Shown piece by piece: positions 11,759 to 62,820 of a stretch of DNA of 64,000 nt. A program made the position numbers and the translations under genes. Numbering within the stretch: position 1 is the stretch's first letter; every line of letters begins with the position of its first letter. Origin of the DNA: Candidatus Omnitrophota bacterium (GTDB lineage: Bacteria; Omnitrophota; Gorgyraeia; Zapsychrales; Fredricksoniimonadaceae); the NCBI GenBank assembly GCA_015233335.1, contig JADFXX010000006.1, forward strand, positions 1,237 to 65,236, read 5' to 3'. The notes under the pieces were generated by a model, which saw only the letters and a program-made list of their open reading frames with translations, searched no databases and was not told the origin of the DNA.

Positions 11759-11771
11759 CAATTTTCCTGGA

Positions 11772-13049: not shown

Positions 13050-13056
13050 ATATTAT

Positions 13057-13138: not shown

Positions 13139-13140
13139 TG

Positions 13141-13413: not shown

Positions 13414-13471
13414 TACGACTCTCCTGATTGGAGCCCCACTTAAGGGTCCATAATTAAATTTAATTGCAACT

Positions 13472-13500
13472 ATCGTACCAGCAAGGACTTACAGTGTCAA
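13472..13500 (-). promoter_or_regulatory. Candidate sigma70 promoter for the HU gene
   Basis: The minus strand reads TTGACA, a 17-nt spacer, then TACGAT, about 60 nt upstream of the ATG at 13413. Confidence 0.35.
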
Positions 13501-13520
13501 ATTCTTTTTGGCCACGGCCT

Positions 13521-13910: not shown

Positions 13911-13914
13911 ATTC

Positions 13915-42630: not shown

Positions 42631-43032
42631 ATGTTTACTCGGAGAAAAGAAAAGGGCTTTACACTCGTGGAAATCATGATCGTAGTTGCAATCATCGCTT
42701 TACTCGCGGCGATCGCTATCCCCAACCTGCTGCGCGCCAAAATGTCTTCCAATGATTCTTTGGCCAAAGCGACTTTGCGGGCAATTTCTACCGCATCTGA
42801 GTCCTATGGAACTGCCAATAACGGTAATTATCCAGGGAGCGTCAACTCGTTGACAACCGCAACTCCCCCGTTTCTTAACACTAACTATTGCACCGGTAAT
42901 CTGATTTCCGGATATGTCTATGCCTGCGGCATGGCCAGCACCGGTTATACGGTCACCGCCACACCCGGAACTGTCGGCACTACGGGTTCTACCACCTATA
43001 CCATTACAACCGGTGGTGTATTAACTCCGTAA
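42631..43032 (+). CDS. Type IV pilin / pseudopilin-like protein, copy 2
   Basis: MFTRRKEKGFTLVEIMIVVAII... Only a handful of aa differences from copy 1. GGAGGG RBS. Confidence 0.85.
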   Translation: MFTRRKEKGFTLVEIMIVVAIIALLAAIAIPNLLRAKMSSNDSLAKATLRAISTASESYGTANNGNYPGSVNSLTTATPPFLNTNYCTGNLISGYVYACGMASTGYTVTATPGTVGTTGSTTYTITTGGVLTP

Positions 43033-44666: not shown

Positions 44667-46130
44667 ATGGGCCCAAAAAATAAAAAACTGCTGTTCATCG
44701 CATCCTTTGAAGACGCCTCCATCCTGCGCAAATTCACGATCCTTTTCCTTGTCGCCTCCATCATCCCAATGGTGCTTCTCTATTATATTTACGTCCAGAA
44801 TAATCAGCACGGACACATCGGCATTGCCTCTATCAACTTTACGGTTGCCATGGTCCTCATGGTCCTTGGCGTATTGGTGGGATTCATGTCCATGCGTTCA
44901 TTGCTTCAAAAAGTCATCAACATTTCCAAAGAAAACAGCGCGGCGCTAGGCAATCTGTTAAGCCCCGATACCATCAAAGAGCTTAATCAGGGCGAAAATG
45001 AAATCGTTATTTTAAGCCGCTCTTTTTCCGCGGTCACACAGCAATTGGAAGAAAATGTCCGCAGCCTGGAGCTTGCCAAAAAAACGCTCCATGCCGTCAT
45101 GTCCAAAGTGGGCCAAGGCATCTCCAACATGGAAAACATCGACACCTTCCTTGAACTCATTGTCGAAACCATGACCAATGCGCTCAACGGGAAAGTCGGC
45201 ACACTGCTGCTTTTAAACGAAAAAAAGACGGAATTAACGCTCCATGCCGTTCACGGCGCTAATTATGATGTAAAAAAACGCCTCCATTTGAAATTTTCCG
45301 AGAATTCACCGCTTTTTCGCGTCATCAAAGACAAGCGCCCCGCTATCATCTCCGGCATTTTTTTACAAAATACCCATGAGCCGCAATTGAGCCAATTTTT
45401 CGGCGATACCTTGCTTTGCGTCCCCCTGATTTATCACGACCGCGTCAGTGGTGTTATGACCCTCAGCAAACCGGAGTCTACGGATGAAAATGCCTTAAAA
45501 GAAGATCTGGAGCTGGTTTTCAATCTTGCTTCCCAGACTGCCGTGGCTATTGAAAATTCCAAGCTCAACAGTGATATTGAAAAAACTTATTTTGAGACCA
45601 TTTCGGCGCTGGCACTGGCCGTCGATGCCAAGGATGAATATTCCCGCGGCCATCTTGACCGGGTGTCCCAATACGCGCTTATGATAGGCCGGGGACTGGG
45701 GCTTGATGATGAGGACTTAAATACCCTGCGGGATGCCGCCCGTTTGCATGACTTGGGCAAAATAGGCGTCCCCGATGAAATCTTAAAAAAACAAACTCAT
45801 TTAAGCGATGAGGAGTGGGTCATTATGCGCCGCCATCCCCAGATCGGCGAAAGCATCATCAAACCGATCCGCTCTCTGCAGCATTTATGCGACCCGATAC
45901 GCCATCACCATGAAAAAATGGATGGGACCGGATACCCGGACGGACTTAAAGGCGAGGAAATCTCCCCCCTTGTACGCATCCTTTGTGTTGCCGATGTTTG
46001 GGACTCTTTGACCACCGAACGGTCTTACCGGGCTAAAAAATCAAAGGCTGAAGCGATCAGCGTTATACGCTCGATGAAGGCCCATCTCGATCAGGATATC
46101 GTTGATATCCTTTTGGAAGAGTTAAAATAA
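44667..46130 (+). CDS. Membrane-anchored GAF + HD-GYP domain protein (putative c-di-GMP phosphodiesterase)
   Basis: Two N-terminal TM segments and a central GAF-like region. HD-GYP motifs HDLGKIGVPDEIL and HHEKMDGTGYPDGL. Confidence 0.85.
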   Translation: MGPKNKKLLFIASFEDASILRKFTILFLVASIIPMVLLYYIYVQNNQHGHIGIASINFTVAMVLMVLGVLVGFMSMRSLLQKVINISKENSAALGNLLSPDTIKELNQGENEIVILSRSFSAVTQQLEENVRSLELAKKTLHAVMSKVGQGISNMENIDTFLELIVETMTNALNGKVGTLLLLNEKKTELTLHAVHGANYDVKKRLHLKFSENSPLFRVIKDKRPAIISGIFLQNTHEPQLSQFFGDTLLCVPLIYHDRVSGVMTLSKPESTDENALKEDLELVFNLASQTAVAIENSKLNSDIEKTYFETISALALAVDAKDEYSRGHLDRVSQYALMIGRGLGLDDEDLNTLRDAARLHDLGKIGVPDEILKKQTHLSDEEWVIMRRHPQIGESIIKPIRSLQHLCDPIRHHHEKMDGTGYPDGLKGEEISPLVRILCVADVWDSLTTERSYRAKKSKAEAISVIRSMKAHLDQDIVDILLEELK

Positions 46131-46148: not shown

Positions 46149-46727
46149 TTATTTTTCCTGACAAGCGGCGGGGTCGCCTTTTTTCTGACCAAAAAGTCGG
46201 CTGGCTTCCTGAAATTCTTTCTTAAATCCCCATTCCTTGATCAAGGCATTGGACCGGCGCTCTGCATCGCAGTTAACATTTCCCTTTTTGATATGATCTA
46301 AAACGCGATGCGCTATTTCATGGGCCACCACTCCTTCGATCGGCCCTTTACTCCCTGCCCCTTCAAGACCCATACCTAATTTTATTATGGTAAAACCCTC
46401 TTTGCAGCAAGGCGGATCATTGGGGGTCACAATAAATTCAGAAGAGCTGGCAAAACGGGCCGTCCCTGAAATATAGAATTCTGTAAAGATAATCGGCCTT
46501 TGACGGTCTGTGACATTAAGGAAATCTTTGTAAGGCATCCTTTGTAATACATCACTAATCGCCTGATAAATCAAGGATGGCTCTTGAAAAAAACAAAACT
46601 CGTCCAAATATTTCTTAATGAAGTCCGAACGGTCATTAGGGTTCACTGAAGCCCTTACCAAAGGACTTGGGGAACAAGTCCAAACAACAACCGCGAGCAT
46701 ACCTATGACCCAGCGCTTCATCGTCAC
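46149..46727 (-). CDS. Secreted HExxH-motif protein (putative zinc metallopeptidase)
   Basis: Signal peptide and VVAHEIAHRVLDH motif. No further family assignment is possible by eye. Confidence 0.45.
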   Translation of the reverse strand: MTMKRWVIGMLAVVVWTCSPSPLVRASVNPNDRSDFIKKYLDEFCFFQEPSLIYQAISDVLQRMPYKDFLNVTDRQRPIIFTEFYISGTARFASSSEFIVTPNDPPCCKEGFTIIKLGMGLEGAGSKGPIEGVVAHEIAHRVLDHIKKGNVNCDAERRSNALIKEWGFKKEFQEASRLFGQKKGDPAACQEK

Positions 46728-47089
46728 TTATCACTTTCATCAGCCATTTTCATCAATCCTTTAGCAATTTCAGGATAGGTTGGCTTAAGGATTTGGGCCG
46801 TGTCCCTTAAGAGTTTTGTCCGCTTGGTCTTAAGCTTTTGAATGTCCCTAGCTTCTGATTCTTGAGGCTCATCCTTGCCGACATTGGCATCTTCCAATGC
46901 TTTTTCTTTCTCATCCGCAAATTGAGCCAGATCACGGGCCATTTGAGGGTTCGATTCCTCAAGGGCCGCAGCTGAATCATTTAAAAGGATGATCTGGCCC
47001 CTTGCATCGCCGCCCTTGGCCCAGGACAGTGTTGTCACCAGTGCGACCATAGCTCCGATCGCCAATAGTCCCTTTATATAATTTGACAT
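46724..47089 (-). CDS. Small secreted helical protein
   Basis: 121 aa with a signal peptide and charged helical sequence. 4-nt overlap with the downstream gene. Confidence 0.4.
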   Translation of the reverse strand: MSNYIKGLLAIGAMVALVTTLSWAKGGDARGQIILLNDSAAALEESNPQMARDLAQFADEKEKALEDANVGKDEPQESEARDIQKLKTKRTKLLRDTAQILKPTYPEIAKGLMKMADESDK

Positions 47090-47445
47090 GGGATCAGAGC
47101 ATCCTCATTATAAAAATAAACCGCGCACAAACGATGATACCCGTCCGCAATGATCACTCTCCCATTTTGACTGTCACGAACAAGCAGTATCGGAGACACC
47201 TTGTCTTTCGATAATATCTTCTTCTTGTCCTTAAGCACATGAGGATTTTTGACGCTTAACAGGGGAAGGCCTGAGGCCCGAAAAATATCTTTGGCTTTAA
47301 ATTCAGACATGGCCGCTCGTCTGAGTTTCCCTACATACCCTTCTGTTCTTTTCTTGTCATACAGCAGGCCCAAGAAAGACGCGGCCGCCGTATAATCGTG
47401 ATCTTCCGGCCGGCTGAGCCATACTATTTTGACTGGATTTTTCAT
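47074..47445 (-). CDS. ParB/sulfiredoxin-like domain protein
   Basis: 123 aa with PILLVRDSQNGRVIIADGYHRLCA, which resembles the ParB N-terminal (DGHHR) core. Confidence 0.4.
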   Translation of the reverse strand: MKNPVKIVWLSRPEDHDYTAAASFLGLLYDKKRTEGYVGKLRRAAMSEFKAKDIFRASGLPLLSVKNPHVLKDKKKILSKDKVSPILLVRDSQNGRVIIADGYHRLCAVYFYNEDALIPCQII

Positions 47446-47508
47446 ATTTATTTATTATATACGATTAAGATAAAAAATCAGCTTATTATTACAATGCGAT
47501 AGGGACCA

Positions 47509-47991
47509 TCAAACTACGTGGGCGTTTTGGTGGAACTCCATTTCACGGCGCAGGTATTTCATCTCTTCCATGCTGTCTTGAAGAAAAATGGATAAGAGCT
47601 CGCGATGTTCCCGGTCTGTGGCACAGAACTCTTTATAAATATCAGTTTTATACGCGGTCAGGCTCATGGCGAGATTAATGACAGCTCTCAAAAACAAATG
47701 AGGAGACTTTAGCTGCAGCAAATATTGATACACCTTGCTGGCAATTGCCGTTTCTCTTTCTTTCGAAAGAGGAAACAGTTTCCTCAGCTCTTTTTGATGC
47801 TCTTGCACGCACTCTTCATAACGCAGGCATTCCTGGCGGTGAGTCTCGTTGTTAAGAAGCCCCCTCAAAGCCTGATAGCAGATATCAAGCAAAGCTTCAA
47901 TACAAATAAGCGTTTCTAATTTATCCGGATCTTCATGCTGTTCGGGCGGATTTTCCATTGGGAAGACACGATTTTTTACAAATGACACCAC
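47509..47991 (-). CDS. Hypothetical all-helical protein
   Basis: 160 aa with no recognised motif. Possible four-helix-bundle-like composition. Confidence 0.4.
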   Translation of the reverse strand: MVSFVKNRVFPMENPPEQHEDPDKLETLICIEALLDICYQALRGLLNNETHRQECLRYEECVQEHQKELRKLFPLSKERETAIASKVYQYLLQLKSPHLFLRAVINLAMSLTAYKTDIYKEFCATDREHRELLSIFLQDSMEEMKYLRREMEFHQNAHVV

Positions 47992-48084: not shown

Positions 48085-48822
48085 CTACTTTGCCGGCTTT
48101 TTTAGGCCTTTTTTTTGATGTTTGCGGCGGTATTGGGTGGGGCTGACTGATTCAATTTTCTCAAACATGCGGATAAATGATTCCAAATTCTGGTAACCCA
48201 GCCTGCTTGCAATTTCTGTGACTGTATAATCGGAATTTTTCAAAAGATCACAAGCTTGGGCGATCTTCACGGAAAGCCGGTACTCATTAAATCCCTGACC
48301 GGAAATCTCTTTAAAAATACGGCTGAAATATTTTGGGCTTAAACAAATTTGTTCTGCAACATCTTCCAGTGTGACTTTCTTGTCAAAATTGCGCTTAACA
48401 AACTGCCGGGCCTGCTCGATTTTGGCATGAATGCCATGTCCATAAGTAAAATTCTGGACTGCTTTCCCGGCAAGAAGTGATCGGATGGTCTCAAGGAGTT
48501 TAGCGGCATTAACAGGTTTTTCAATATAATCATCCGCACGGCCTTTAAGGGCGTCAATGGCAATGTCCTTGTTGCTCTGTCCGGTCAAAACGATCGTGGT
48601 CATTGAAGGCTTGATCCTCTTGATCTGGCGCAAAACTTCCATTCCAGGTATCTGAGGCATCACAGCATCAAGGATCACGAGATCAATCGCATTGGGTTTT
48701 TTTAAAATGGCTAATGCCTGAATCCCATCGGCCGCTTCTATCACAGCATACCCCTCCAGGCAATCCCGCAGCTCTTCACGGAATTCCTCATCGTCATCCA
48801 CAATTAAAATTTGGTAGGCCAT
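48085..48822 (-). CDS. Response regulator with AraC-type HTH output
   Basis: Receiver (ILIVDDDEEF, DLVILDAVMP) plus an AraC HTH pair (LSPKYFSRIFKE..., VTEIASRLGYQNLESFIRMFEK). Confidence 0.85.
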   Translation of the reverse strand: MAYQILIVDDDEEFREELRDCLEGYAVIEAADGIQALAILKKPNAIDLVILDAVMPQIPGMEVLRQIKRIKPSMTTIVLTGQSNKDIAIDALKGRADDYIEKPVNAAKLLETIRSLLAGKAVQNFTYGHGIHAKIEQARQFVKRNFDKKVTLEDVAEQICLSPKYFSRIFKEISGQGFNEYRLSVKIAQACDLLKNSDYTVTEIASRLGYQNLESFIRMFEKIESVSPTQYRRKHQKKGLKKPAK

Positions 48823-48860
48823 TCGATAAGTATACCCATTATTCCCCGATAAAACAATGA

Positions 48861-48893
48861 AAAAACCCGATCCTATTGCGGGATCGGGTTTTT
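48861..48893 (-). terminator. Intrinsic terminator between receiver gene and AraC-type regulator
   Basis: cccgatcc-tattgc-gggatcggg stem flanked by A- and T-runs. Confidence 0.55.
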
Positions 48894-48922
48894 CGACGAG
48901 AAGCCGGTTCTCCCATCAGAGA

Positions 48923-49378
48923 CTACGTCCCATCGGAATCATACTCCTTAACACGATTTCCTAGGGCAAACTCGATTTTACTGATGAGATTGACCGGCCT
49001 GAAGGGCTTAAGGATGGATGTTTTAATGCCGCATAATTTCATCATCAAAAGATGCTGTTTTTCCGTAAAGAAACCTGTCATCGCGATAATAGGAACGTCT
49101 TTTAAGAACATCGAATTGGTGAACTCATCAGCGATCTGAAAACCGCTTTTGGGGCTCATTTTCAAATCCAATAAAATAAGATCGGGTTTATTCTTAAGGG
49201 CGGCATCAAAGGCCTTACTGCCGTCGTTGATCGCAAGAACATCGTAGCCTCCGAGTTCCAGCATATGCTTTAATTCTTCTAGGAGCTCAACATTATCATC
49301 GACGATCAATATCCGTGGTTTTGGTATAGTCATTGAATTTATCTCATCCTGCTGATTTTTTAAATATGGACTTGGCAT
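48923..49378 (-). CDS. Single-domain response regulator
   Basis: RILIVDDN, DLILLDLKMSP and ILKP motifs. The start may be the internal MTIPKPR. Confidence 0.8.
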   Translation of the reverse strand: MPSPYLKNQQDEINSMTIPKPRILIVDDNVELLEELKHMLELGGYDVLAINDGSKAFDAALKNKPDLILLDLKMSPKSGFQIADEFTNSMFLKDVPIIAMTGFFTEKQHLLMMKLCGIKTSILKPFRPVNLISKIEFALGNRVKEYDSDGT

Positions 49379-49430
49379 GTCACTAATTTACTCTGCCAAT
49401 CTCCAACTGACAATGTCCCCTTTCCTCTTT

Positions 49431-49835
49431 TTACTGACTGTTTTCCACTATTCCTTTTGTCAATGTTTTAATCTGCCTCAAAAACTCTTTGACTATAAAA
49501 GGCTTATTCATCACCGCATCTGCCATTTTCAGAATCTGTTCTTCCCCATTGCCATCGACACCATTTTCTTTGAGCAACGCATTCCCCATAGGTTTTCCCG
49601 AAAGCACCAAAACTTTGAGAGGATGGGCACTTTTTTTGACGCTTTCAAGCACTCCATAGCCGCTCAATCCGGGAAGTTTCAAATCAAGCACGATGATCTG
49701 GTATTGCCTGACTCGTAAATACTTGAGCCCCTGTGCTCCGTCAAAGACGGTATCTACCTCAAAGCCCTCTGCCTCAAGGACTTCGGAGAGCTCTGTACAC
49801 AGTTCCTCATCATCATCAATGAGAAGGACTTTCAC
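49431..49835 (-). CDS. Single-domain response regulator
   Basis: VLLIDDDEEL, QIIVLDLKLPG and MNKP motifs. Overlaps the kinase gene by 20 nt. Confidence 0.85.
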   Translation of the reverse strand: MKVLLIDDDEELCTELSEVLEAEGFEVDTVFDGAQGLKYLRVRQYQIIVLDLKLPGLSGYGVLESVKKSAHPLKVLVLSGKPMGNALLKENGVDGNGEEQILKMADAVMNKPFIVKEFLRQIKTLTKGIVENSQ

Positions 49836-51006
49836 TTATATTTCTACTATGGATCGGCAATGCCACGGTCACGCTAGTCCCATGGCCCTGACAGCTCGTG
49901 ATCAGGATCTTGCCCTGATGTAAATGAACCAATTCGTTACAGATAGCCAGTCCCAACCCTGTGCCTTTGGATTTACGGGTGAAAAAAGGCTCAAAAACTT
50001 TGTCTAAATCTTCCGGGGCAATGCCTTCACCGGTGTCCTCAAAGATGACCTCAACCGTCTGGCTATCCTTACTGCATACTTTTAATTCCACACGTCCGTT
50101 GGGATGATGGATGGCCTGACAGGCGTTATTTAGAATATTAATAAAAACTTCCCTGATCTGATTGGCATCCGCATCTATAAAATCGAGCCCTTGAGCATAT
50201 TTTTTCTCAATGATGACCCCCTTCTGGCCAAAACGTTCCTGGGCCGTCGTAACGCATTCATCAAGAATATTAAGGAGATTAACATGTTCATAATTAGGGA
50301 TCTTAATGCGCGCGTAACTTAAAAGATTGTCGATGATCTGGTTGCCTTCCCAGACCTTTTTTTCAATATTCACCAGATGCTTGTTGGTGCTCAAATCGCT
50401 TTTCTCTCTTTTTAAATTATACGCGGCCAAATGAATGACCCCCAGCGGATTGCGCAGTTCGTGGGCCACGGTCGCGGCCAATGTCCCAATATCCGCCAAG
50501 CGGCTGTGATGCTTGAGCTCTTTCTGTGTCTTGAGCAGCTCCTTGGAACGTTCATCCACCAGCTGTGCCATAATCTTGTTGTCGCGTCTTAAGAATTCTT
50601 CAACCAGTTTTCTATCAGTAATGTCCACAATAGAGGCCAAAACACAAAGCCCCTGTTCGGTTTCAACCGGGGTCAATCCGATCTGGACCAAAATGTGCCT
50701 GCCGTCTTTTCTTAAAGCGGTAAGATCACGCCCGGCACCCATAGGCCGTGCTTGAGGATCATTGAGGAAACCGGAGCGCAGATCAGGATGATTGGCCCGG
50801 AATTGTTCAGGCATCAAACTTTCTACCTTCATGCCCAACAGCTCCTGACGGGTATATCCAAATAATGTTTCCGTAATTTTGTTGACCAGCAGGACCTGCC
50901 CTTTTTGGTCAACCATAACGTTTGCAACGGGGGAGAATTCAATGACCTCTTCTAAGACCGCGAGGGCGCTTGGAGACATAAGCTTGAGTATCTTATGCGC
51001 TGACAT
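49816..51006 (-). CDS. Cytoplasmic PAS-domain sensor histidine kinase
   Basis: PAS region, H-box VAHELRNPL, N-box NILNNACQA and G-box GTGLGLAIC. No TM segment. Confidence 0.85.
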   Translation of the reverse strand: MSAHKILKLMSPSALAVLEEVIEFSPVANVMVDQKGQVLLVNKITETLFGYTRQELLGMKVESLMPEQFRANHPDLRSGFLNDPQARPMGAGRDLTALRKDGRHILVQIGLTPVETEQGLCVLASIVDITDRKLVEEFLRRDNKIMAQLVDERSKELLKTQKELKHHSRLADIGTLAATVAHELRNPLGVIHLAAYNLKREKSDLSTNKHLVNIEKKVWEGNQIIDNLLSYARIKIPNYEHVNLLNILDECVTTAQERFGQKGVIIEKKYAQGLDFIDADANQIREVFINILNNACQAIHHPNGRVELKVCSKDSQTVEVIFEDTGEGIAPEDLDKVFEPFFTRKSKGTGLGLAICNELVHLHQGKILITSCQGHGTSVTVALPIHSRNISESPSH

Positions 51007-51073: not shown

Positions 51074-51137
51074 TAAAAAAACCCTGACAGGGTTTCCTGT
51101 CAGGGTTAAAAAGTAGGGGCCGAGATAAACTCGGCCC
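51074..51137 (-). terminator. Tandem intrinsic terminators after the 1522-aa gene
   Basis: Minus-strand hairpin gggccgag-tttat-ctcggccc is followed by ccctgacagg-aaa-ccctgtcaggg and UUUUUUU. Confidence 0.65.
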
Positions 51138-51146: not shown

Positions 51147-54100
51147 TTATTTCACTAATTCATAAAGCGCCGGGACATTCTCCGGTGTCAACGGCGATAT
51201 CCTACGAATGATCGACGTCAAGCCGTTTAAATTCAGCATGGCCTTGTCCTGGAATTGCGGAGGCAGGGGCATCCCTGCACCGTCGACTTTGATGTTAATC
51301 GTCAAGTTTTCGTCGCTTAAGTTGATACCACCGACGTTCTTATTCAAAGGATTCATCGCCGGATTCACCGGTGCCGCAGGTGCGACTACCACAGGAGCCG
51401 GCACAACAGGAGCGGCTGGCACAGGCGCAAGACTTGCCTTAACAACAGGACTTGCATTGATCATACTGCCCATGTTTCTTAATCCATTCCTCTCGCGCTC
51501 CAACTGCCTATTTAGTCTTTTGTTAGCAGCTTCAAGCGAAGCTAGACTATCCTCAGCAGCCGAGACCGCGGCATTTAATAATGTGTCGTTACGATTTGGA
51601 ACTGTTAACCCAATCAGCTGACCTGTGACATCATTTCTTGTTTTTACGATCGTTCCTCTTTTAGCATTTTCAACCTGATCAACTAAAGCGGCGACTTGAT
51701 CTTTTATATCGACCTTCTTGCTGCCGATACTACGACCAAGCTTTGCGTTGATCTTTGCTGTCTTCACAGCCGGAGTGATCGTTTTATCAGCGAGAATACC
51801 ACTCACTATATCCCCTAACCTAGCATTATAATTTTCAATCTCACGGTCCAAGTCTTCCTGTACCTTTCTAGCTTGGGCTTGTTGGGCCATCATATTTCGT
51901 CTAATTTCTAGAACACCTGTCTCGTTGAAGCCATTTAACAATGCCCTTTGGGTTCCCGTAGTTCTATTCCAGGCTGTCAAATGACTAAAGGCAGGAGACG
52001 CTTTTGTTCCCGCCGCTATTGCCGATGCACGTGCAGCTTCTACTCTTTCACGTTCATCTTGGATATCACGCAAATACTGCCCAACATGGGCTCCTGATTT
52101 AAACTCTTCTTCAAAAGTAACCCCATGTTCGAAAGCACCTTTGGCTACAGCCAAAAGATCATCTCGTTTGACTGTTTTCTCGCTTTCAGTAAGGGCTGTG
52201 TCGCGATTCACTTGTGCTATCGCATCTCTGAAGGCCTTGTCTATAGCGTTGACGCTGTCCCTCAAGACACCGACATTTTTTGCATCAACTTGGGGAAGAT
52301 TCTGAATATCAGATTTCACCTGGCTGATCTGTTCATCCACATCTCTTAGTTCTGCCTGAAACCTGAGAACTCGGGCCCTGGAAGCATCAACTTCCTTTGC
52401 TAGATCTCTCCACTCGGGAGTATTCCGAAAATTTGCTTCTTCAATACCTTGGGCCTGTTGATCTCTGACCCATTGATCACGTTTAGCCTCTGAGCGGCTC
52501 AACACGCCTCTAACCTGTTGCAAAACATCATCCCTCTGCTTGCGCAGTTTAGTTAAGTCATCCAGCTGTCCGGTCAAACCTACAACGAGAAGCTTAGTTC
52601 CGGATGCCATGCTTTTAATTTGGTCTTCCAAGTCTCTGACTTTATTACTCGCTGCAATCACTTGCGGCGCAAGCGCGTCATTTATGGCTCTGGTATTATT
52701 AGGATTGCTCGCCAAAGCGAACAATTGATTATATTGCGCCCTTGCCGCATTTAATTGAGCTTGTAAATTATGCAGCGATGTTTGAGTAGCGGCAGTTGCG
52801 GCGGGTGTCGGCGTCGGCGTCGGAGTTGGTGTCGGAGTTGGTGTTGGTGTTGATGTTGATGTTGCTGCCGGCGCCGGTGCTGCCGACGGTAAAGCGGTCG
52901 CAGGCACAAAAGGAATACCCGCTCGAAGCGCTATAATTTCTTGTTCAAAATTATGGTGCTTTAACCTTAACACTGATTCTCGGGACTTGGATGCATCAAT
53001 TGCATCCTGAGTTGGTGCTGCAGCTCCTGATTTCGCCACTTGGTTCTGCATTTCTGCCAAAGTCTCGGTTTCAACAGCCCTAATCCCTTGTCTTAAATCT
53101 CTAATTCTTCTTTCAACACGTCTTTTTTCTCTATCTTCAGCTATTTTTAAATTGCGTTCCAGAACCCCTTTTTTCCCTATAAAGAAGCTTAGGAATTTAT
53201 CCTTTGCACGAGACAGCATTGAATTACATTTTGCCAAGGCATCTTTTGTAGCTGCTATTTGTGCGGCTCCAACTTCCCCTTGCCTCTGGTTTTGAGCAAG
53301 TCTTTCTTCTACAACAGGCAAAGGTTCTTCTGCATTTTTCTTCGTCCCTGCCCTATATGAACCATAAGCACCGGCGGCCCCTACAAGTACCAACGCGGCT
53401 AGTCCAAACTCTAAAGCTCTTTCTCGAGTTAGGTCATTTTGAACAGTCGCTACCAGTTTTTGTTCGTCCGCAATTTTTGTCTGGGTGAGTAAATTATCAG
53501 CTTTACTTTTTGCATCTGTCATGTTATCCAGCTGAGTTTGAAGACTCGAGATATCTTGTTCTTGGTCATCAAGTTGTAGCTTTTGGGAAGCATTATCAGC
53601 TATAAGCCCGTTGATTCTATCGAGATCTGCTTTCTTTTCTGCATCAGTTCTTGTTTTGTCATCTACTATCTGCTGTTTAGCCGCTGCAAGATTCTTAGAT
53701 GCATCTGCAAGCTGCTGTTTGCTTGTCGATAGATCACCTTTCAATCCTGTTATTTGTGTATTAAGATTTGTTCTTTCCGTTTCGAAATTCTTTTGTTGTT
53801 GATTATAGGCTTGAACATCTTGGGCGTGTTTCTGCTGTGCTACTGTCAAGAGACCATTGACCCTGTCTAACTCTGCTCCGGGCACCATATGCGATATTTG
53901 GTCCTCTAAACCTGCAATTTCTATGGTATCTTGATGCACGGTATTCGCTAAAGCTTGTATGGCCTCTGCATCACTTTGATGCTGAGCATTTAGATTAGCA
54001 ATTGTTGCCTTCATCTCTCTTTTGATGGCACCATCGGATTTTCCGCCAAACACGACCCGGAAAGTTCCGCCAATATTATCTACTATTACCTGCTCACCCA

Positions 54101-55715
54101 AATTCCCACCATAATCTACCACATGTCCTACCTGTACCAGTACCCATGGACCAGCTTTATCTCTGGTAAAACGATATACCCCTCCTGCCGCGTCCCATGT
54201 AAGTTTAGCAGCACCAACTGTTAATTCACCGACTGCCACAATAGGCACAACGATGATCTCACCGGTCCCGGTAACAAATAACTGAACATTCTTTAATTGT
54301 TCACGGTTGGAACCCACAAAACCTGCATACTGTTGATCTTTTGCGGCTTCTTCCGGCGTAATTTTTCTCCACATACTTTTACCAACATTATCCAAACCGT
54401 CTTGAGCTAATTTGAAAGTAAGCGGTCTATTGTCGGCAGGAGCTGTTGCGGTTGCGGGAGTGCCTGCAAAAACCTTACCAGACAAAGTTGCAAAAAGGGT
54501 AGCGACCATTAATATTCTGGCAGTTTTGCCCGCCATGGCACCTAATATCCGTGTTCCAAAACTCCGGCGCTCTGTGGTGACCCTTGCCCTCTCTTCAACC
54601 GGTAATGAGGCCATCGCATTTTCATTATAGCCCTTTACTCCTTCGCTAGGCGTCATGATCAACCCGCCCGAAAAATATTTCCTCGGGATCACCTGGCCGT
54701 CAGGGGTCGGGTCTTCTTTAATAAAGTTAAACACACCTTTTTTGTAGGCCCTTAAATACTGTTGATATATTTTCTCTTTAGCCTGCGGGTCATCCACCTG
54801 CTGGCCTGCTACCTTTGATTTATTTGCGAAAACTTGTCCTAAAAGGCTTTCTCTAAGCGTCTTTTTGAACCATGTGGCCATGATCTGTGCGTTATAAGCC
54901 TGACGGACAGCGGCAAAACTCTGGCCCTCATTAACTTCCTTCTCGATCGCCGGGATGATGATCTCACGAACGATGTCGGAGGCCATTTTTGTTTTTGCAT
55001 CAGCTATAGCATCTGTATTTGCCGGCTGAGCGCTGCCAAACTGTTCTTTATTTTTCTCTATGGCCATGTAGTCCTGCTCCAGCATGACCTTCAGATGGCT
55101 GGCCACTAAAAATGCGGTGTCATCTTTCTGATAAACATCCGCGTGATCAGCTACGATCCACACCTTATTAAAGGTATTGACATTGATATCGGTGGTGCCG
55201 AAACGGGCCTGCGCTTCACTGTAAACTTTTTCCCAAAACTTTTTACCTAAGCCATCTTCCGGATACATTAGGGAAGCTGTGAACTGCTTGAGGATATAGT
55301 CCTGAGCTAAAAGATCACGGCCCATTTCAGTTTGGCCAAAAATTTCAGGGATGAGACGGTTGGATTCATAAGGAGAAAGGTTGACCCACATGTCCTGATT
55401 AGGCATAGCCAAAGAAACCAAGAAATATTTAATGATCTTATTAAATTCATCTTTCTTGGCATCATCAGACATCGGGTTTTCGCCCTGATCCATAATAAAA
55501 TTAAAACTAAATGGATCCTTAAGGTCGACCTTAAGGCCCACCATTTGAGGCGGCTCAAAATGATGCGTGACATGGATCATCTGGCCAGGAGGAGGCATAA
55601 TGATCTGCACCTGTGCATAACTGGGCTGGGCCGGAAGCATCGCGGCAAACGCAGTCAAGACCGTAAACGCAATAACGCGAAATAACGGGGATTTTCTAAA
55701 GGTGTTTGTTCTCAT
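51147..55715 (-). CDS. Giant secreted/membrane-associated coiled-coil protein with conserved N- and C-terminal modules
   Basis: 1522 aa. Signal peptide and a ~350-aa globular N-domain (PPQMVGLKVDLKDPFSFNFIMDQGE...WVNLSPYE...GRDLLAQDYILKQ). Two internal hydrophobic segments and >900 aa of Q/K/D/A-rich coiled coil. (TP)n linker. C-terminal VGGINLSDENLTINIKVDGAGMPLP...module. Confidence 0.8.
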   Translation of the reverse strand: MRTNTFRKSPLFRVIAFTVLTAFAAMLPAQPSYAQVQIIMPPPGQMIHVTHHFEPPQMVGLKVDLKDPFSFNFIMDQGENPMSDDAKKDEFNKIIKYFLVSLAMPNQDMWVNLSPYESNRLIPEIFGQTEMGRDLLAQDYILKQFTASLMYPEDGLGKKFWEKVYSEAQARFGTTDINVNTFNKVWIVADHADVYQKDDTAFLVASHLKVMLEQDYMAIEKNKEQFGSAQPANTDAIADAKTKMASDIVREIIIPAIEKEVNEGQSFAAVRQAYNAQIMATWFKKTLRESLLGQVFANKSKVAGQQVDDPQAKEKIYQQYLRAYKKGVFNFIKEDPTPDGQVIPRKYFSGGLIMTPSEGVKGYNENAMASLPVEERARVTTERRSFGTRILGAMAGKTARILMVATLFATLSGKVFAGTPATATAPADNRPLTFKLAQDGLDNVGKSMWRKITPEEAAKDQQYAGFVGSNREQLKNVQLFVTGTGEIIVVPIVAVGELTVGAAKLTWDAAGGVYRFTRDKAGPWVLVQVGHVVDYGGNLGEQVIVDNIGGTFRVVFGGKSDGAIKREMKATIANLNAQHQSDAEAIQALANTVHQDTIEIAGLEDQISHMVPGAELDRVNGLLTVAQQKHAQDVQAYNQQQKNFETERTNLNTQITGLKGDLSTSKQQLADASKNLAAAKQQIVDDKTRTDAEKKADLDRINGLIADNASQKLQLDDQEQDISSLQTQLDNMTDAKSKADNLLTQTKIADEQKLVATVQNDLTRERALEFGLAALVLVGAAGAYGSYRAGTKKNAEEPLPVVEERLAQNQRQGEVGAAQIAATKDALAKCNSMLSRAKDKFLSFFIGKKGVLERNLKIAEDREKRRVERRIRDLRQGIRAVETETLAEMQNQVAKSGAAAPTQDAIDASKSRESVLRLKHHNFEQEIIALRAGIPFVPATALPSAAPAPAATSTSTPTPTPTPTPTPTPTPAATAATQTSLHNLQAQLNAARAQYNQLFALASNPNNTRAINDALAPQVIAASNKVRDLEDQIKSMASGTKLLVVGLTGQLDDLTKLRKQRDDVLQQVRGVLSRSEAKRDQWVRDQQAQGIEEANFRNTPEWRDLAKEVDASRARVLRFQAELRDVDEQISQVKSDIQNLPQVDAKNVGVLRDSVNAIDKAFRDAIAQVNRDTALTESEKTVKRDDLLAVAKGAFEHGVTFEEEFKSGAHVGQYLRDIQDERERVEAARASAIAAGTKASPAFSHLTAWNRTTGTQRALLNGFNETGVLEIRRNMMAQQAQARKVQEDLDREIENYNARLGDIVSGILADKTITPAVKTAKINAKLGRSIGSKKVDIKDQVAALVDQVENAKRGTIVKTRNDVTGQLIGLTVPNRNDTLLNAAVSAAEDSLASLEAANKRLNRQLERERNGLRNMGSMINASPVVKASLAPVPAAPVVPAPVVVAPAAPVNPAMNPLNKNVGGINLSDENLTINIKVDGAGMPLPPQFQDKAMLNLNGLTSIIRRISPLTPENVPALYELVK

Positions 55716-55899
55716 TTTATTCTCCTGGTTGATCCTTATATTTGCAATTGCATAGGGTTTAATAAATCTTTATATCTATCCACTTAATGGGGCCAACTAG
55801 ACCTCATTTAGTTGAAGTATAACATATGACTTTTCAAAATGCCAATCGACATTAAAAATTATTATAAGTCATTGGATTGTATGTAGTTATGAAATAAGA

Positions 55900-58338: not shown

Positions 58339-60627
58339 TTATAGTTTAAGCAACTTTGGGATCCACCAGAATAGTCCGGCTAACAGGACTATGATCGATG
58401 TGCCTCCCAGCAGCATAAAGAAGAATTCTTTTGGATCTATTCCCGGATTAATAATTTTCGTGCGATCGACTCCGTTTAGATATAAGACATAGCTTTCCAG
58501 ATCAGCGATCTGGGCTTGGGTTAATGCATGGGAATCGCCGAAATTGGGCATATTGGGGCCTCCCTCGGTGTTGGGGATGCCGTGCTGGATATAACGGTCC
58601 ACATGCTCTGCAAAAACCTGCGCGTCTTCGTTTTTGACGGCAGGATCTATCGGATTAAGAGCAGGGACGCCTCTCGGAGCGTTAAATCCCGGAGTATTAG
58701 GGATGCCGCGCGGGCCGTGGCACATAATACATGACTGATGGAATAAAATAGCTCCGTGTTCACGGTCGCCGATAAGACCTACGGATTGGGGAGCGATCCC
58801 ATTTGTGCTCGAGGGTGGATTGCCCTGCCCTTCAGCGGCTTGGGCCTGTTCTTCTGCTTTAGTCACAGGCGTTGGTTTTCTCGTTGCAAGACTGCTTAAG
58901 AAAAGTGTCATCGCATCGATCTGGTCATCTTTGAGACGATTGGCGTAAGACGGCATAATGCTCATAGGGTTATGCTGCTGCGGCGCTGTGAGTTGGACTT
59001 TAAGCCAATCTTGGGCGGGTTTATCCTTGGCTATGGCCATGATCAAATCCGGGCCTGATTTATTGCTCGGCCGTCCTTGGATGGTGTGACACTGAACACA
59101 TCCTTGAGTGTTAAATAATTGTTCGCCATATTTGATCAAAACGTCCTTGTTATCGACTGATTCTTGGGCTGTTGTCGGCTTAGGCGGCGGCAAAGGGACG
59201 GAAGCAGGCTTTAGATTTTCCAGATAACCTAATAAGAGTTCAACATTTTGATCACTTAAATCGGAATATGGCGGCATGATGGTGCGGGGATTATGCAATT
59301 GAGGCGCTATCACTTGGATAGAAAGCCACTGATGTGAACGATTGTTCCCGCGGGCCATGACCAAATCCGGACCCTGTTTATTGCCGGCGATCCCCGTCGT
59401 TGAGTGACATTCGGTACAGCCTAATGTTTTAAATAACTGCTGGCCTGTCAGTTTTTTATCGACATTAACCAAGGCCATAGTCTTGGGGATATCCAGATCC
59501 GGTAATTTCTTATTGGTCAGATCTACGATCGTCCGATTAGGGGCCTCCATTTGGGCCGCTTCGGCAGGGCTTCTATAAATATAGCCCAGCCATGTCAAAT
59601 AAAGAATCATGCCTACAAAAGTAAAACCGCCTAAAATGATAAACCCTCGTTTAAAAGGGTTTTTCTGCGGGTTAGAATCCGCAAAAGGCAGGGAAGCAAA
59701 AAGCAAAATGATCATCAAAGGCACACCCGCCGTGCCCAAAGGCTCCAGAGGCCCGGGAAGAAATTTTAATATTTGATAAAGGAACAGGAAGCTCCACGCT
59801 GGTTTTGGAGTTATCAACGTATCGGTGGGGTCCGCTAACCCGGAAAACGGCGGGGGGAAAAAAGCAGATAAAAAAACCAGCAGTAAAAAAATCAAAAAAG
59901 AGACCAGAACATCTTTGAAAATCTGTTCCGGCCAGAAATATCCTATTTTTTTGCGTTTGTCCTCATCCCACGGCCCGGACTCACCGAACTGGCGAAAAGC
60001 GATCAAGTGCAGCGTGACAAATAATCCGACCATGGCCGGAATAATGGCCACATGAAGGACGTAAATACGTAACAATGCCATCTGCCCCATTTTATCAGCC
60101 CCCTGCAGGATCATTTGTGTCATGGGGCCGACAATGGGAACTGAACCGGCTATACCAATGCCTACCTGCCCCGCCCAATAACCATTCTTGTCCCAAGGCA
60201 GAACGGGTCCGGTGAACATGAACATCGCGGTCAGAACAATAAGAACTATCCCGATGAGCCATACCATTTCTCTGGGTTTTTTATAGGAGCCCCAGATGAA
60301 TACACGCAGAACATGCAGCCCCACAACGATCGTAAACAAAGTCCCGCCCCAATAATGGATGCCATGCACAAGCCATCCAAAAGGAACTTGGAGGCGCAGA
60401 TAGTTCAAACTTGTGTACGCGTAATCAATGGTGGGCACATAATAAAAAAGCTGCCAGACCCCTGTGACAATCTGCATGGTCAAAAGAAACATGCAAGCAC
60501 TGCCTAAGGTGTAGGAAAATCTGGTGCCGCCGGGGATCTCTTCATGCAAGAATTCACTAAAAAATGTGATCAATGAAGTACGCTCATTGATCCAGCCTAT
60601 CATTTTTTGTAACAAAGGCGTTTTCAT
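58339..60627 (-). CDS. Cytochrome b fused to three c-type cytochrome domains
   Basis: N-terminal ~380 aa is cytochrome b (GSYKKPREMVWLIG, PAWSFLFLYQILK). Three CxxCH sites follow (CTECH, CVQCH, CIMCH), then a C-terminal TM. Confidence 0.8.
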   Translation of the reverse strand: MKTPLLQKMIGWINERTSLITFFSEFLHEEIPGGTRFSYTLGSACMFLLTMQIVTGVWQLFYYVPTIDYAYTSLNYLRLQVPFGWLVHGIHYWGGTLFTIVVGLHVLRVFIWGSYKKPREMVWLIGIVLIVLTAMFMFTGPVLPWDKNGYWAGQVGIGIAGSVPIVGPMTQMILQGADKMGQMALLRIYVLHVAIIPAMVGLFVTLHLIAFRQFGESGPWDEDKRKKIGYFWPEQIFKDVLVSFLIFLLLVFLSAFFPPPFSGLADPTDTLITPKPAWSFLFLYQILKFLPGPLEPLGTAGVPLMIILLFASLPFADSNPQKNPFKRGFIILGGFTFVGMILYLTWLGYIYRSPAEAAQMEAPNRTIVDLTNKKLPDLDIPKTMALVNVDKKLTGQQLFKTLGCTECHSTTGIAGNKQGPDLVMARGNNRSHQWLSIQVIAPQLHNPRTIMPPYSDLSDQNVELLLGYLENLKPASVPLPPPKPTTAQESVDNKDVLIKYGEQLFNTQGCVQCHTIQGRPSNKSGPDLIMAIAKDKPAQDWLKVQLTAPQQHNPMSIMPSYANRLKDDQIDAMTLFLSSLATRKPTPVTKAEEQAQAAEGQGNPPSSTNGIAPQSVGLIGDREHGAILFHQSCIMCHGPRGIPNTPGFNAPRGVPALNPIDPAVKNEDAQVFAEHVDRYIQHGIPNTEGGPNMPNFGDSHALTQAQIADLESYVLYLNGVDRTKIINPGIDPKEFFFMLLGGTSIIVLLAGLFWWIPKLLKL

Positions 60628-60632: not shown

Positions 60633-61205
60633 TTAGGCCTCAACCTTTTGGGGGATGCCGGCTTTAAACAGTTTCCATTGCACGTACAATTCTCCTGATT
60701 CAATTTTATATGCCAGTGTATCCAGAGGCCTTGGCGACGGCCCACCTATCACCTTGCCGTTCTCATCAAACAGGCTTCCATGGCAGGGGCAGTTAAATTG
60801 ATTGTTAATGAAGGTGTAGCGGCAGTTTAAATGCGGACATAACGGTGAATAGACGGTTGCCTGTGTATCGGAGTGTTTGATCACCCAAACATCATAAACC
60901 ACCTGACTGCGGATAAAGGCCTGCACATCTAAGTCCTCAAAAGTCATTTTCGTCGGCTTTCCGACGGGAATAGCGGAAAAATTGGGGACCTTAATGAATT
61001 TCCTGTCCGCGCCCTCGTTGGAAGCGGGAATAAGATAGGAGACAAACGGCAAACTCAATCCCAGTGTTAGAAAACCCAGCAGGGCCGCGGTCAGGCCTTT
61101 AATGAAATTACGTTTCTGAATATCCTCGGGTTCCTCGGATCTGGGTGTCGGCGTATGATCAGTCATGGATTCCTTTATTTTGCTGTATCCATTGGTCGAA
61201 ATCAC
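60633..61205 (-). CDS. Rieske [2Fe-2S] protein
   Basis: CPHLNC...CPCHGS motif boxes and an N-terminal TM anchor. The start may be the internal MTDHTP. Confidence 0.85.
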   Translation of the reverse strand: MISTNGYSKIKESMTDHTPTPRSEEPEDIQKRNFIKGLTAALLGFLTLGLSLPFVSYLIPASNEGADRKFIKVPNFSAIPVGKPTKMTFEDLDVQAFIRSQVVYDVWVIKHSDTQATVYSPLCPHLNCRYTFINNQFNCPCHGSLFDENGKVIGGPSPRPLDTLAYKIESGELYVQWKLFKAGIPQKVEA

Positions 61206-61908
61206 TTTGAGACACTACACTTAAAACGCCTCTCATGCGGTAGTGCCCCACACCGCACAATTGAGAGCAGACGATTTCAAATTGGCCTATTTTATTGGGA
61301 GTAAACCAAACGGACGTTGTCATTCCCGGAATGACGTCCTGTTTCACACGCATGGCCGGCAGGGCGAAACTGTGGATAACATCTTTACTGGTCATGCGCA
61401 GAATGACTGTTTTATTGACCGGCAGATACATCTGATTCATGGTTGTAATATCATCACGCCCGTTGGGGTCATTAGGATCTAGCCCCAAAGGGTTGTCCTC
61501 AAGGAATCGGGCTGAGGCGCGGCCGAATTTTCCGTCTGGACCGGCATAATGAAAATTCCAGGCAAACTGCTGGGCTACCACCTTGACTTCCATAATATTG
61601 CGGCCTTCTGGAATGGAGGCCACATGGACAGCCCAAAAAGGAATGGAAAATGCGAATAACAGCAGGAATTCAAATGCCGCCACCCCCCACTCAACTGCCG
61701 ATGAAATCTTGTGGGCGGCCGGGACGTGGACCACCTGCGGGTTTTTGGACCGGCGGAATTTGATCAAGACCACAATATAATAAATGGCCCAGCCTACAAA
61801 AAGGACGAGAATCAGGCCATGGATCAAATACATCAAAGTATCGTTATCACGGCCTTCGATAGAGGCTAAAGGCTGCATGGGAAAAATTAATTTTAAGATA
61901 TTGTCCAT
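61159..61908 (-). CDS. ctaC: Cytochrome c oxidase subunit II (no fused cytochrome c)
   Basis: Two TM helices and CuA site HSFALP...CSQLCGVGHYRM. Confidence 0.85.
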   Translation of the reverse strand: MDNILKLIFPMQPLASIEGRDNDTLMYLIHGLILVLFVGWAIYYIVVLIKFRRSKNPQVVHVPAAHKISSAVEWGVAAFEFLLLFAFSIPFWAVHVASIPEGRNIMEVKVVAQQFAWNFHYAGPDGKFGRASARFLEDNPLGLDPNDPNGRDDITTMNQMYLPVNKTVILRMTSKDVIHSFALPAMRVKQDVIPGMTTSVWFTPNKIGQFEIVCSQLCGVGHYRMRGVLSVVSQSDFDQWIQQNKGIHD

Positions 61909-61911: not shown

Positions 61912-62214
61912 TTAATACGTCGTAAATTCACTGGGTGTTCGCGGGGAATTGGCGATATCCCAGGCCGGCAAAAACAATAAAGACAAAAAAACCACAAATG
62001 TCAAAAATAGGATCAGATGAATGGTTTTCTTCTTGGTCATTAAATGCATGAAATAATAGCCCACGATCAAAGCCTCACAGGAGGCGATCGTTAGAATCAA
62101 AACCATCCCTAGGGACTTGAGCCTCAAATGGTTGATCGTGACGATCAGGGCTGTCAGGCAGATGATGCCAAGATAGATTGCGATATCTCTTTTAAATTCC
62201 GAGCGTTGTTCCAT
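61912..62214 (-). CDS. Small cytochrome oxidase subunit IV-like membrane protein
   Basis: 100 aa with three TM segments and a YFMHL motif. Lies between coxIII and coxII. Confidence 0.55.
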   Translation of the reverse strand: MEQRSEFKRDIAIYLGIICLTALIVTINHLRLKSLGMVLILTIASCEALIVGYYFMHLMTKKKTIHLILFLTFVVFLSLLFLPAWDIANSPRTPSEFTTY

Positions 62215-62217: not shown

Positions 62218-62820
62218 TTAGAGCAGGTACAGGATTGAAAATAAAAAGATCCAAATGATATCCACAAAATGCCAATAAAGACCGGCCACTTCAAGGCGAT
62301 TGATGAACCATTGTTTATTGATGGTCCTCAATCGGGTGCCGGGGCCGGCATAATAAATATTGATCCCGATGCCGGCCAAGATGTGTAAGGCATGCAAACC
62401 CGTTAACAAAAAATAAAGGGCCAGAAAAACACTTGTTTTAGGGTATTCCTGACGGCTGAAATGTTGGTAATATTCGATCCCCTTGAAAAACAAAAAAAGA
62501 CCAGCCAGGGATATCACCCACCACATCAGTCTTTTATATTTGGCCAAATCATCCGCTTTCAATGCAACCCAGGCGCGTATGAAAAATATACTGGATGACA
62601 AAAGAATAACGCTGTTCAATGCGCCTATGGGGACGTTCAGATAATCTGATTGCTGAGGCCATGAAAAAGATCCCACTCTTAGAAGGATATACGCAGAAAA
62701 CAGCGAGCCAAAAAGCATGATCTCTGAAGCTAAAAAAAGCCAGAGCCCAAACTTGGCATTATAAAGCCCGGTATCTTCGCGGGCTTCTACTTTATATGGA
62801 ACTAGTTCTGTGTCATGCAT
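62218..62820 (-). CDS. ctaE: Cytochrome c oxidase subunit III
   Basis: 200 aa with five TM segments and YWHFVDIIWIFLF motif. Confidence 0.85.
   Translation of the reverse strand: MHDTELVPYKVEAREDTGLYNAKFGLWLFLASEIMLFGSLFSAYILLRVGSFSWPQQSDYLNVPIGALNSVILLSSSIFFIRAWVALKADDLAKYKRLMWWVISLAGLFLFFKGIEYYQHFSRQEYPKTSVFLALYFLLTGLHALHILAGIGINIYYAGPGTRLRTINKQWFINRLEVAGLYWHFVDIIWIFLFSILYLL

Follow-up and report, generated by a model that had tools for sequence, protein, structure and literature searches.

Omnitrophota are a widespread, mostly uncultivated phylum with tiny cells and giant, puzzling proteins. Here we analyse a protein of 1522 residues that is encoded on the minus strand, at positions 51147 to 55715, of a 64,000-nucleotide stretch of DNA from a Candidatus Omnitrophota bacterium (assembly GCA_015233335.1, contig JADFXX010000006.1, positions 1,237 to 65,236; hereafter the window). 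The protein belongs to a very large, previously unnamed modular family, apparently restricted to Omnitrophota, for which we use the name 'bookend'. The members share one frame: a signal peptide, an N-terminal module of ~320 residues (N-module), a D-x-A-M motif, a variable cargo, a second D-x-A-M and a proline-rich C-terminal module of ~60 residues (C-module). With moderate confidence, we regard them as Sec-exported modular carriers, the payload being fibrous and membrane-associated in this member.

Large proteins with unexpected domain content have been described in the phylum. The glycolytic, PGM and PPDK domains of Omnitrophota giants are predicted to be extracellular and are highly divergent (West-Roberts et al. 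2023, bioRxiv 10.1101/2023.11.21.568195). Signal peptide and transmembrane (TM) segments are combined in 39% of 916 proteins of at least 10 thousand residues (kAA), and the same giants contain methyltransferase, HATPase_c, GNAT, PGM and receiver domains (Nielsen & Lui 2026, bioRxiv 10.64898/2026.06.07.730766). One of the two preprints notes that N-terminal regions of the giants 'lack identifiable domains'. A shared N- or C-terminal module is described in neither preprint, and we found no description of the two modules in the literature searched. The earlier work joined signal peptides to metabolic domains in giants, but without a unifying sequence feature; the present locus exposes one.

The bookend family resembles the 'Archaeovorins' and other very long multi-enzyme proteins in style. 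Both occur in Omnitrophota and combine a signal peptide and/or TM segments with divergent domains of cytoplasmic type, and the cargo repertoires overlap (HEAT, HATPase_c, PPDK_N, NUDIX, PGM, methyltransferase, GNAT and response regulator domains). The bookend family reaches lengths of at least 6.4 kAA. Archaeovorins differ from the protein studied here in their size (at least 10–30 kAA versus 1522 residues) and in domain content: the 1522-residue protein has no glycosyltransferase, methyltransferase, glycosyl hydrolase, peptidase or NUDIX domain, although such domains are found in other bookend members. Archaeovorin genes also have a locus similar to type II secretion system (T2SS) or Tad genes upstream and pilZ downstream, neither of which adjoins the gene in the window. 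The family looks like the small-protein counterpart of these signal-peptide- and TM-bearing multi-enzyme giants. At 9 of 80 genomic loci, reading frames with an N-module run for more than 3,650 residues to the edge of the retrieved DNA, so that some members may reach the size of the giants.

By analogy, the family would work most like carrier-payload systems such as CRN effectors, cargo of the type IX secretion system (T9SS) and PE/PPE proteins. CRN effectors have a signal peptide, a conserved header, an HVLVxxP junction and unrelated payloads, apparently swapped by recombination, and they form large paralogous families. The arrangement of a header, a short junction motif (D-x-A-M in the bookend family) and unrelated payloads is common to both, but there is no relation in sequence or fold, and the CRN proteins of oomycetes are eukaryotic, have no C-terminal trailer and act in host nuclei. 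T9SS cargo likewise pairs a Sec signal peptide and arbitrary cargo with a short conserved C-terminal element within one phylum. That phylum is Bacteroidota, however, the cargo is of extracellular type without a common N-terminal domain, and the C-terminal domain is a β-sandwich of 70–100 residues with Pfam and TIGRFAM models, whereas the bookend C-module has no match and no predicted strands. PE/PPE, Rhs and CdiA proteins share the conserved trafficking header, the swapped downstream regions and the many paralogs per genome, but they use type VII, V and VI secretion routes, carry toxins or surface antigens as payloads instead of housekeeping-type enzymes, have no C-terminal trailer and show no homology. 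The closest analogue of a tether is provided by RTX adhesins of the type I secretion system (T1SS), in which both ends, an N-terminal retention module and a C-terminal secretion signal, are conserved around a long variable or repetitive middle. These have GGxGxDxUx arrays and no Sec signal peptide, whereas our protein has a signal peptide and a single GGINL without an array; no T1SS genes are found near its gene. Autotransporters of the type V system differ in having a β-barrel of at least ~250 residues, compared with a C-module of 61 residues and a mixed α/β N-module without a Pfam match.

The family was delineated by several searches. In a search with the whole protein, 8,000 candidates were scored and more than 4,200 relatives obtained; the best local alignments cover only the first ~23–29% of the protein, and the relatives found through the N-module whose source is named come from Candidatus Omnitrophica or Omnitrophota metagenome-assembled genomes (MAGs). 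When 1.84 billion cluster representatives (50% identity) were searched exhaustively with phmmer for the N-module alone, 7,834 matched at E ≤ 1e-3, of which 6,097 also pass E ≤ 1e-30. The module is consistently N-terminal, starting at residues 25–70 in nearly all of the 150 listed representatives (at residues 1–22 in the exceptions), and the proteins among the listed matches are 513–6432 residues long. A genome scan with one genome per species gave more than 597 matching stretches, of which the best 80 loci were examined. All 80 lie in Omnitrophota MAGs or in coarsely labelled third-party-annotation MAGs, in line with the preliminary description of this DNA, which had placed the relatives in uncultivated bacteria. 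Same-strand tandem arrays of 2–3 members are common at these loci and single MAGs supply at least 5 members to the top 80, while the window contains no paralog of the protein.

The conservation is confined to the two ends. BLASTP alignments to the closest relatives cover residues 1 to ~440 at 69–82% identity and residues ~1452–1522 at 70–89%, with nothing between them; the N-module proper (residues 35–351) is 70–82% identical to the closest members. Both terminal modules recognised in the preliminary description are real, their conservation lying far beyond chance, and they do occur together: the C-module was detected in 102 of the 120 best matches by single-sequence search and in 183 of 211 with a hidden Markov model (HMM). 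At the genomic loci, 57 of 57 complete reading frames with an N-module also end with a C-module. Frames scored as having one module only are all truncated at the edge of a contig or locus or broken by a frameshift, except in L014, where the C-module was missed by the HMM and recovered by BLASTP. The N- and C-modules are therefore strictly coupled. Neither is matched in Pfam, NCBIfam, the PDB (sequence searches) or BFVD. The new element is a head-and-tail pair without detectable relatives, marking at least 7,800 clusters of proteins from 0.6 to at least 6.4 kAA.

The two modules have distinct properties. In the N-module, 43 columns are invariant among 66 sequences, many of them polar or aromatic (for example WVNLSP.E, DY.LKQ, NK.W, E.N, RQ and Y.SGG), a pattern that fits a shared binding or catalytic site. 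AlphaFold2 predicts a mixed α/β fold with long helices (predicted local distance difference test score, pLDDT, 78; predicted template modelling score, pTM, 0.74). The C-module has the family pattern GGI[DN]L...DG.G.PLP...Q....G..P.I..I.P, situated at the C-terminus or at most ~76 residues from it, with G-G-I, one further G and one I invariant. When modelled alone (100 residues, 50 sequences) it contains no strands, with a pTM of 0.26 and high local confidence. By this prediction the C-module resembles a peptide that docks in extended form more than it does a domain. At the boundaries facing the cargo, both modules carry an invariant Gly-Gly.

The region between the modules is the variable slot of the family. 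Complete members measure 621–6432 residues (median 1320) with cargos of 224–6,015 residues, which places the 1522-residue protein at the 67th length percentile. Among pairs with N-module identity of at least 80%, similarity between the middles is found in only 9%, and at 50–60% identity in 0.1%. The same-genome paralogs L014/L024 and L045/L046 have N-modules that are 79–82% and C-modules that are 55–60% identical, with unrelated cargos of very different lengths. The cargo is not co-inherited with the conserved ends. Pfam confirms a wide range of contents: SATase with a Cys/Met PLP enzyme, PGK with a histidine phosphatase, UDPGP with phosphoglucomutase, an M48 peptidase with an ABC1 kinase, enolase, PPDK/PEP-utilising domains, Glu/Leu dehydrogenase, AlaDH, RmlD, SNF2/ResIII helicase, HATPase_c, response-regulator receivers, protein kinase, methyltransferases, NUDIX and HEAT repeats. 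In this family, nature provides a constant carrier frame into which almost any payload can be fitted.

Among these members, P0100 (L081, 327-7457) has a PGK domain at residues 450-885 that is full length, 36–40% identical to any PGK, and carries insertions and SHLENP in place of the usual SHLGRP substrate-binding motif. It also has a histidine phosphatase and, by eye, SIS/PGI-like and P-loop kinase-like segments, and would represent several glycolysis-type enzymes strung together in a single polypeptide with a signal peptide. A housekeeping context was considered for the PGK-bearing members and rejected, as they do not lie in gap-pgk-tpi operons. PGK-bearing P0072 (L082, L083) is located in a variable island with a tyrosine integrase, AbiEii, DUF1016 and toxin-antitoxin-like genes, which suggests that some family members travel with mobile DNA.

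These data bear on the preliminary proposal that the protein is a dedicated surface stalk or tether, derived from a compact protein with the two modules by insertion of a coiled coil. The heptad-rich middle and flexible linkers of this protein agree with such an origin, as do the coil-rich, TM-bearing middles of its closest relatives (854–1883 residues). The supposedly much shorter relatives were not found, however: no compact protein of the two modules exists in the set, the smallest cargo has 224 residues and our protein is of mid-range length. Nor are the modules pushed apart by a spacer, since the same slot holds enzymes and signalling domains in other members. As a reading of the family the stalk does not stand, and in the form of a stretched compact protein it is very improbable; a stalk or tether may still describe the role of the coiled-coil cargo in this one member.

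The gene and the protein comprise the following features.

51147..55715, minus strand: coding sequence including the stop codon, 1522 residues (open reading frame call and translation).
55721..55726, minus strand: Shine-Dalgarno sequence AGGAGA, 6 nt 5' of the ATG (sequence reading).
55816..55845, minus strand: candidate σ70-like promoter, TTGGCA-18-TATACT, TG-extended (consensus match only).
51117..51137, minus strand: first terminator-like hairpin, with a stem of 8 bp (7 GC) and a T-run after it.
51080..51107, minus strand: second terminator-like hairpin, with a stem of 12 bp (7 GC) and T7 after it.
55614..55715, minus strand: predicted Sec-type signal peptide, residues 1-34 (heuristic rules, not SignalP).
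54663..55613, minus strand: N-module, residues 35-351, ending in the invariant RKYFSGG (family alignment, phmmer, AlphaFold2).
54612..54623, minus strand: ENAM, degenerate copy of the D-x-A-M that follows the N-module, residues 365-368 (motif scan).
54459..54515, minus strand: hydrophobic helix H1, residues 401-419, signal-peptide-like with K/R on its N-side (hydropathy).
54036..54458, minus strand: G/V/T-rich, probably β-rich region without homologs, residues 420-560 (composition).
53436..54023, minus strand: heptad-rich, coiled-coil-like block, residues 565-760 (heptad scan).
53361..53417, minus strand: hydrophobic helix H2, residues 767-785, with K/R on its C-side (hydropathy).
53034..53267, minus strand: heptad-rich block, residues 817-894 (heptad scan).
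52800..52943, minus strand: P/A/T-rich linker with (TP)8, residues 925-972 (composition, repeat scan).
51447..52802, minus strand: further heptad-rich blocks, residues 972-1423 (heptad scan).
51354..51446, minus strand: P/A/V-rich linker, residues 1424-1450, followed by NPAM, residues 1451-1454 at 51354-51365 (composition, motif scan).
51150..51332, minus strand: C-module, residues 1462-1522 (family alignment, BLASTP).

The reading frame is intact from its ATG and uninterrupted in this assembly, and every peptide quoted in the preliminary description was located in its translation. The AT-rich leader noted there corresponds to a gap of 249 nt with a GC content of ~0.38–0.40, compared with ~0.45 nearby. 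The promoter candidate lies within it, ~100 nt upstream of the gene; such sites are no commoner there than in shuffled sequence. No Rfam match near threshold indicates a riboswitch or leader RNA in the 5' region. The tandem terminators were likewise recovered, as two hairpins each with a T-run after the stop codon. With a ribosome-binding site, a promoter-like site and two terminators, the gene looks monocistronic.

The middle of the protein is an orphan cargo of ~1,100 residues, heptad-rich and of low complexity. A search of 5.8 billion proteins, as far as its word index allows, detected no homolog of residues 420-1440 at E ≤ 1e-3, and the middle yields no high-scoring segment pair against the 120 best family matches. 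The coiled coil, put at ~1000 residues in the preliminary description, is abundant but not continuous, with ~616 residues in 11 blocks between 565 and 1423. Heptad-like, proline-free windows with high scores number 198 in the middle, as opposed to 23 ± 13 in shuffled sequences. The two hydrophobic segments reported earlier are present as part of a set of three internal ones (401-419, 477-501 and 767-785), the second of which falls within the G/V/T-rich region; the closest relatives have a hydrophobic segment at a position equivalent to H1. Both expected linkers are found: the (TP)8 tract occupies residues 956-971 and is encoded by a 6-nt tandem repeat at 52804-52864, and the P/A/V-rich linker covers residues 1424-1450. 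The C-module reads GGINL...IKVDGAGMPLP..QFQDKAM.NLNGL..II..I.P...NVPALYELVK.

Scans of the protein against Pfam, NCBIfam, PADLOC and PHROGs gave only composition-driven matches. An MRPL52 match, an internalin K match to the P/A/T-(TP)8 region and a virion-protein match to the TP linker were rejected for this reason. Matches to ASRP, SbcC and LmuB (1e-8) concern only heptad-rich parts (566-758 or 859-1173) and lie far below the cut-offs. The Pfam and profile scans contain no ATPase domain, and the Walker A/B heads of SMC/SbcC/LmuB-type ATPases were not found.

An orphan middle is the sole point in favour of an artefact, that is, a chimeric assembly, a pseudogene or a chance long reading frame. 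The 4.5-kb open frame with its ribosome-binding site, promoter-like site and terminators, the strong purifying selection on both ends, the same architecture in thousands of independent assemblies and a heptad periodicity far above shuffled controls make this explanation extremely improbable. The reading frame is a genuine gene, apparently with transcription of its own.

The nearest relative, L006 (CAWHFJ01), has an N-module identity of 86%. At the DNA level only the two modules align (~80%), and there is no flanking synteny. The L006 gene (CAWHFJ010000013.1, 9857-14117) is split into overlapping frames, 9857-10681 and 10539-14117, probably through a long-read frameshift error rather than as a pseudogene.

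The favoured reading of the family as exported carriers starts from the N-terminus, which looks like a cleavable Sec signal peptide in nearly all members. The n-region has a net charge of +2/+3 in most, the hydrophobic 12-mer a mean Kyte-Doolittle value of 2.5, and a proline-rich c-region leads to [SG]-[YF]-A before the putative cut and Q after it. In our protein, an n-region with four K/R (+4) precedes a 15-residue hydrophobic core, prolines and P-x-S-Y-A, again followed by Q. The signal peptide proposed from the DNA alone is thus borne out by the heuristic call, and its pattern is conserved across the family. An internal TM helix is absent from 120 of 182 complete members; combined with the signal peptide, this would put N-module, cargo and C-module all on the exported side. 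A further 39 of the 182 have exactly one internal helix, which would separate the N- and C-modules under any topology.

A mechanism can be proposed on this basis. Sec would export the protein and signal peptidase would cut after SYA. The N-module would fold outside the cytoplasmic membrane as a constant handling domain that provides the same targeting, anchoring or assembly for every cargo. The C-module, without a fold of its own, could dock as an extended peptide, either onto the N-module (in cis, or head-to-tail in trans) or onto a shared component of the envelope or secretion machinery. Recombination or end homogenisation would exchange the cargo between the conserved ends. In this member, coiled coils, two or three hydrophobic helices and the flexible TP and PAV linkers would make the cargo a fibrous element, and the protein would most likely be a fibre or tether of the envelope, associated with the membrane and held by the modules at its two ends.

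Several observations weigh against an exported carrier. The signal-peptide call is based on simple rules, not on SignalP or DeepTMHMM. Twelve members have two internal TM helices; under the positive-inside rule, the K/R residues that flank these helices (29 to the left and 12 to the right of TM1, 20 to the left and 43 to the right of TM2) would leave the sides bearing the N- and C-modules 'inside', which conflicts with an exported N-module. The cargo that can be identified is mostly cytoplasmic in type (PGK, enolase, PGM/UGPase, PPDK, SAT with a PLP enzyme, SNF2 helicase, HATPase_c, response regulators). Such domains need ATP, acetyl-CoA or DNA, and activity after Sec export is unexpected. A like contradiction has been reported for the giant proteins of the phylum. 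The receiver of P0058 keeps, by eye, its acidic pocket (DD), the phospho-acceptor D, and the S and K. No secretion, sortase or protease partner recurs beside family genes at the 80 loci. In a search for conserved partners, only generic genes were recurrent (two-component, ABC-F, TPR, PtsP, glycosyltransferases, integrases) and none was retained.

The same observations would be accommodated by a cytoplasmic scaffold or metabolon, in which an uncleaved or non-exporting N-terminal tether holds the protein and the modules assemble enzymes and signalling domains at the cytoplasmic face of the membrane. The cytoplasmic-type cargo, including a P0058 receiver that looks functional, and the charge pattern around TM1 and TM2 both speak for this arrangement, as does the large fraction of members without an internal helix, whose cargo and modules are therefore on the same side. 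It is opposed by the textbook cleavable signal peptide of nearly all members, in an orientation that exports what follows, and by the one-helix members, whose modules would be on opposite sides in any case. We consider the scaffold unlikely, as well as its corollary, equally unlikely, that in two-TM members only the loop between the helices would be outside.

The junctions between modules and cargo carry a motif of their own. In 304,000 residues of family proteins, D-x-[AS]-M is observed 433 times versus 63 expected (~7-fold). It is concentrated 0–60 residues after RKYFSGG, 1–25 residues before GGI[DN]L and at the borders of cargo domains, for example at 428, 975, 1536 and 1577 in P0076 and at 436, 694, 806 and 933 in P0058. 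Our protein has degenerate copies where the motif is expected, ENAM (365) and NPAM (1451), and a full QDKAM inside the C-module; the AlphaFold2 model has a locally raised pLDDT around ENAM (residues 365-368). Use of the Met as an internal start for cytoplasmic cargo was considered and rejected: a Shine-Dalgarno-like sequence lies upstream in 12% of cases; the figures are 32% at true starts and 8% at internal Met elsewhere. Asp is specified by either of its codons and Ala by any of its own. Free codon variation together with the lack of Shine-Dalgarno enrichment means that D-x-A-M is selected at the peptide level, not at the RNA level. It could be a cleavage site, a latch or a docking motif.

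Cleavage at this motif or at the Gly-Gly boundaries (after RKYFSGG, or between GG and I[DN]L) would make bookend proteins pro-proteins or polyproteins, from which the modules are removed and the cargo is freed. The enrichment of a peptide-level motif at the N-module end, at the C-module start and between cargo domains fits such processing, and so does the invariant GG at the boundaries facing the cargo; the giant-protein literature proposes processing by C39 or S8 domains. However, domain scans of the N-module gave no protease signature, linked peptidase genes were not found, and the junction motifs of our protein are degenerate. A pro-protein appears improbable to us, and we are equally doubtful that the protease would be the N-module itself or a C39-type double-glycine peptidase such as has been reported on the giants. 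Such processing is compatible with exported carriers rather than an alternative to them.

The conserved header, the junction motif and the swapped payloads also recall effectors that act across cells or kingdoms, with the N-module as translocation header and the C-module as targeting trailer of a payload delivered, after Sec export, into host or prey, much as in CRN/RXLR effectors or AB toxins. This account would explain the pairing of a signal peptide with cytoplasm-type cargo and would suit the host-dependent or predatory lifestyles proposed for Omnitrophota. The cargo enzymes are moreover highly divergent paralogs (PGK is at most 40% identical and outside the gap-pgk-tpi operon). On the other side, translocon or injection genes are not linked, no host is known, response regulators and histidine-kinase ATPase domains would be odd effectors, and the genome of the window suggests a free-living, aerobic organism, with its aa3 oxidase, bc complex and CtaA/B and a complete set of ordinary housekeeping genes. 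Effectors are thus distinctly unlikely, and the insertion of the hydrophobic hairpin of our protein into a target membrane, which they would entail, is just as unlikely.

Returning to exported carriers, a far-reaching version can be considered tentatively, being possible though rather doubtful: a phylum-wide frame would take cytoplasm-type proteins (glycolytic enzymes, two-component signalling domains, helicases and kinases) through Sec into a host or prey, or into an extracytoplasmic space in which they are active, and would also frame the Archaeovorins. If this were true, part of the enzymology of Omnitrophota would take place beyond the cytoplasm of the cells themselves, by means of a universal frame with swappable payloads, and this would amount to a protein-handling system of a new kind. 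The module pair makes the export of cytoplasm-type enzymes in this phylum a testable question, and provides a handle for a family model, a census, the link to the giants and questions of localisation and cleavage.

The gene is flanked by a respiratory cluster and by a PAS histidine kinase with three response regulators. Upstream of it lie CtaB, CtaA, a bc complex and an aa3 oxidase. The respiratory genes are at 58339-60627 (minus strand), 60633-61205, 61159-61908, 61912-62214, 62218-62820 and 63276-63977. They include a protein of 762 residues, in which the N and C parts of cytochrome b are fused to three cytochrome c domains and a FixO-like segment, located next to a Rieske protein; the aa3-type oxidase subunits COX1, 2, 3 and 4 are followed by CtaA and CtaB, forming an aerobic respiratory cluster. 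In a 2026 survey of complete Omnitrophota genomes, mostly of class Gorgyraeia, terminal oxidases were reported absent, so that the genome of the window probably represents another lineage, one that respires. Directly downstream, 48085-51006 (minus strand) encodes the PAS-HisKA-HATPase kinase, two stand-alone receivers and a receiver-AraC regulator. Genes of two-component systems are found near family members at 14 of the 80 loci and also occur as cargo in family proteins; the association may be a coincidence, such genes being abundant.

The rest of the window is ordinary chromosome, with PBP2, MreB, Asp-, His- and Ile-tRNA synthetases, EPSP synthase and an AddAB-like helicase/nuclease. A lone 133-residue protein with a prepilin-type N-terminal methylation motif (pseudopilin or pilin) is encoded at 42631-43032 (plus strand); no other T2SS or type IV pilus genes were seen among the reading frames scanned. 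Four small frames without a Pfam match (192, 121, 123 and 160 residues) at 46149-47991 (minus strand) look like an uncharacterised operon, the first three overlapping end to start and a 63-nt gap preceding the fourth. The only sizeable plus-strand gene in that part of the window, 44667-46130, encodes a protein with GAF and HD-GYP-type (HD_5) domains, which is likely a cyclic-di-GMP phosphodiesterase.

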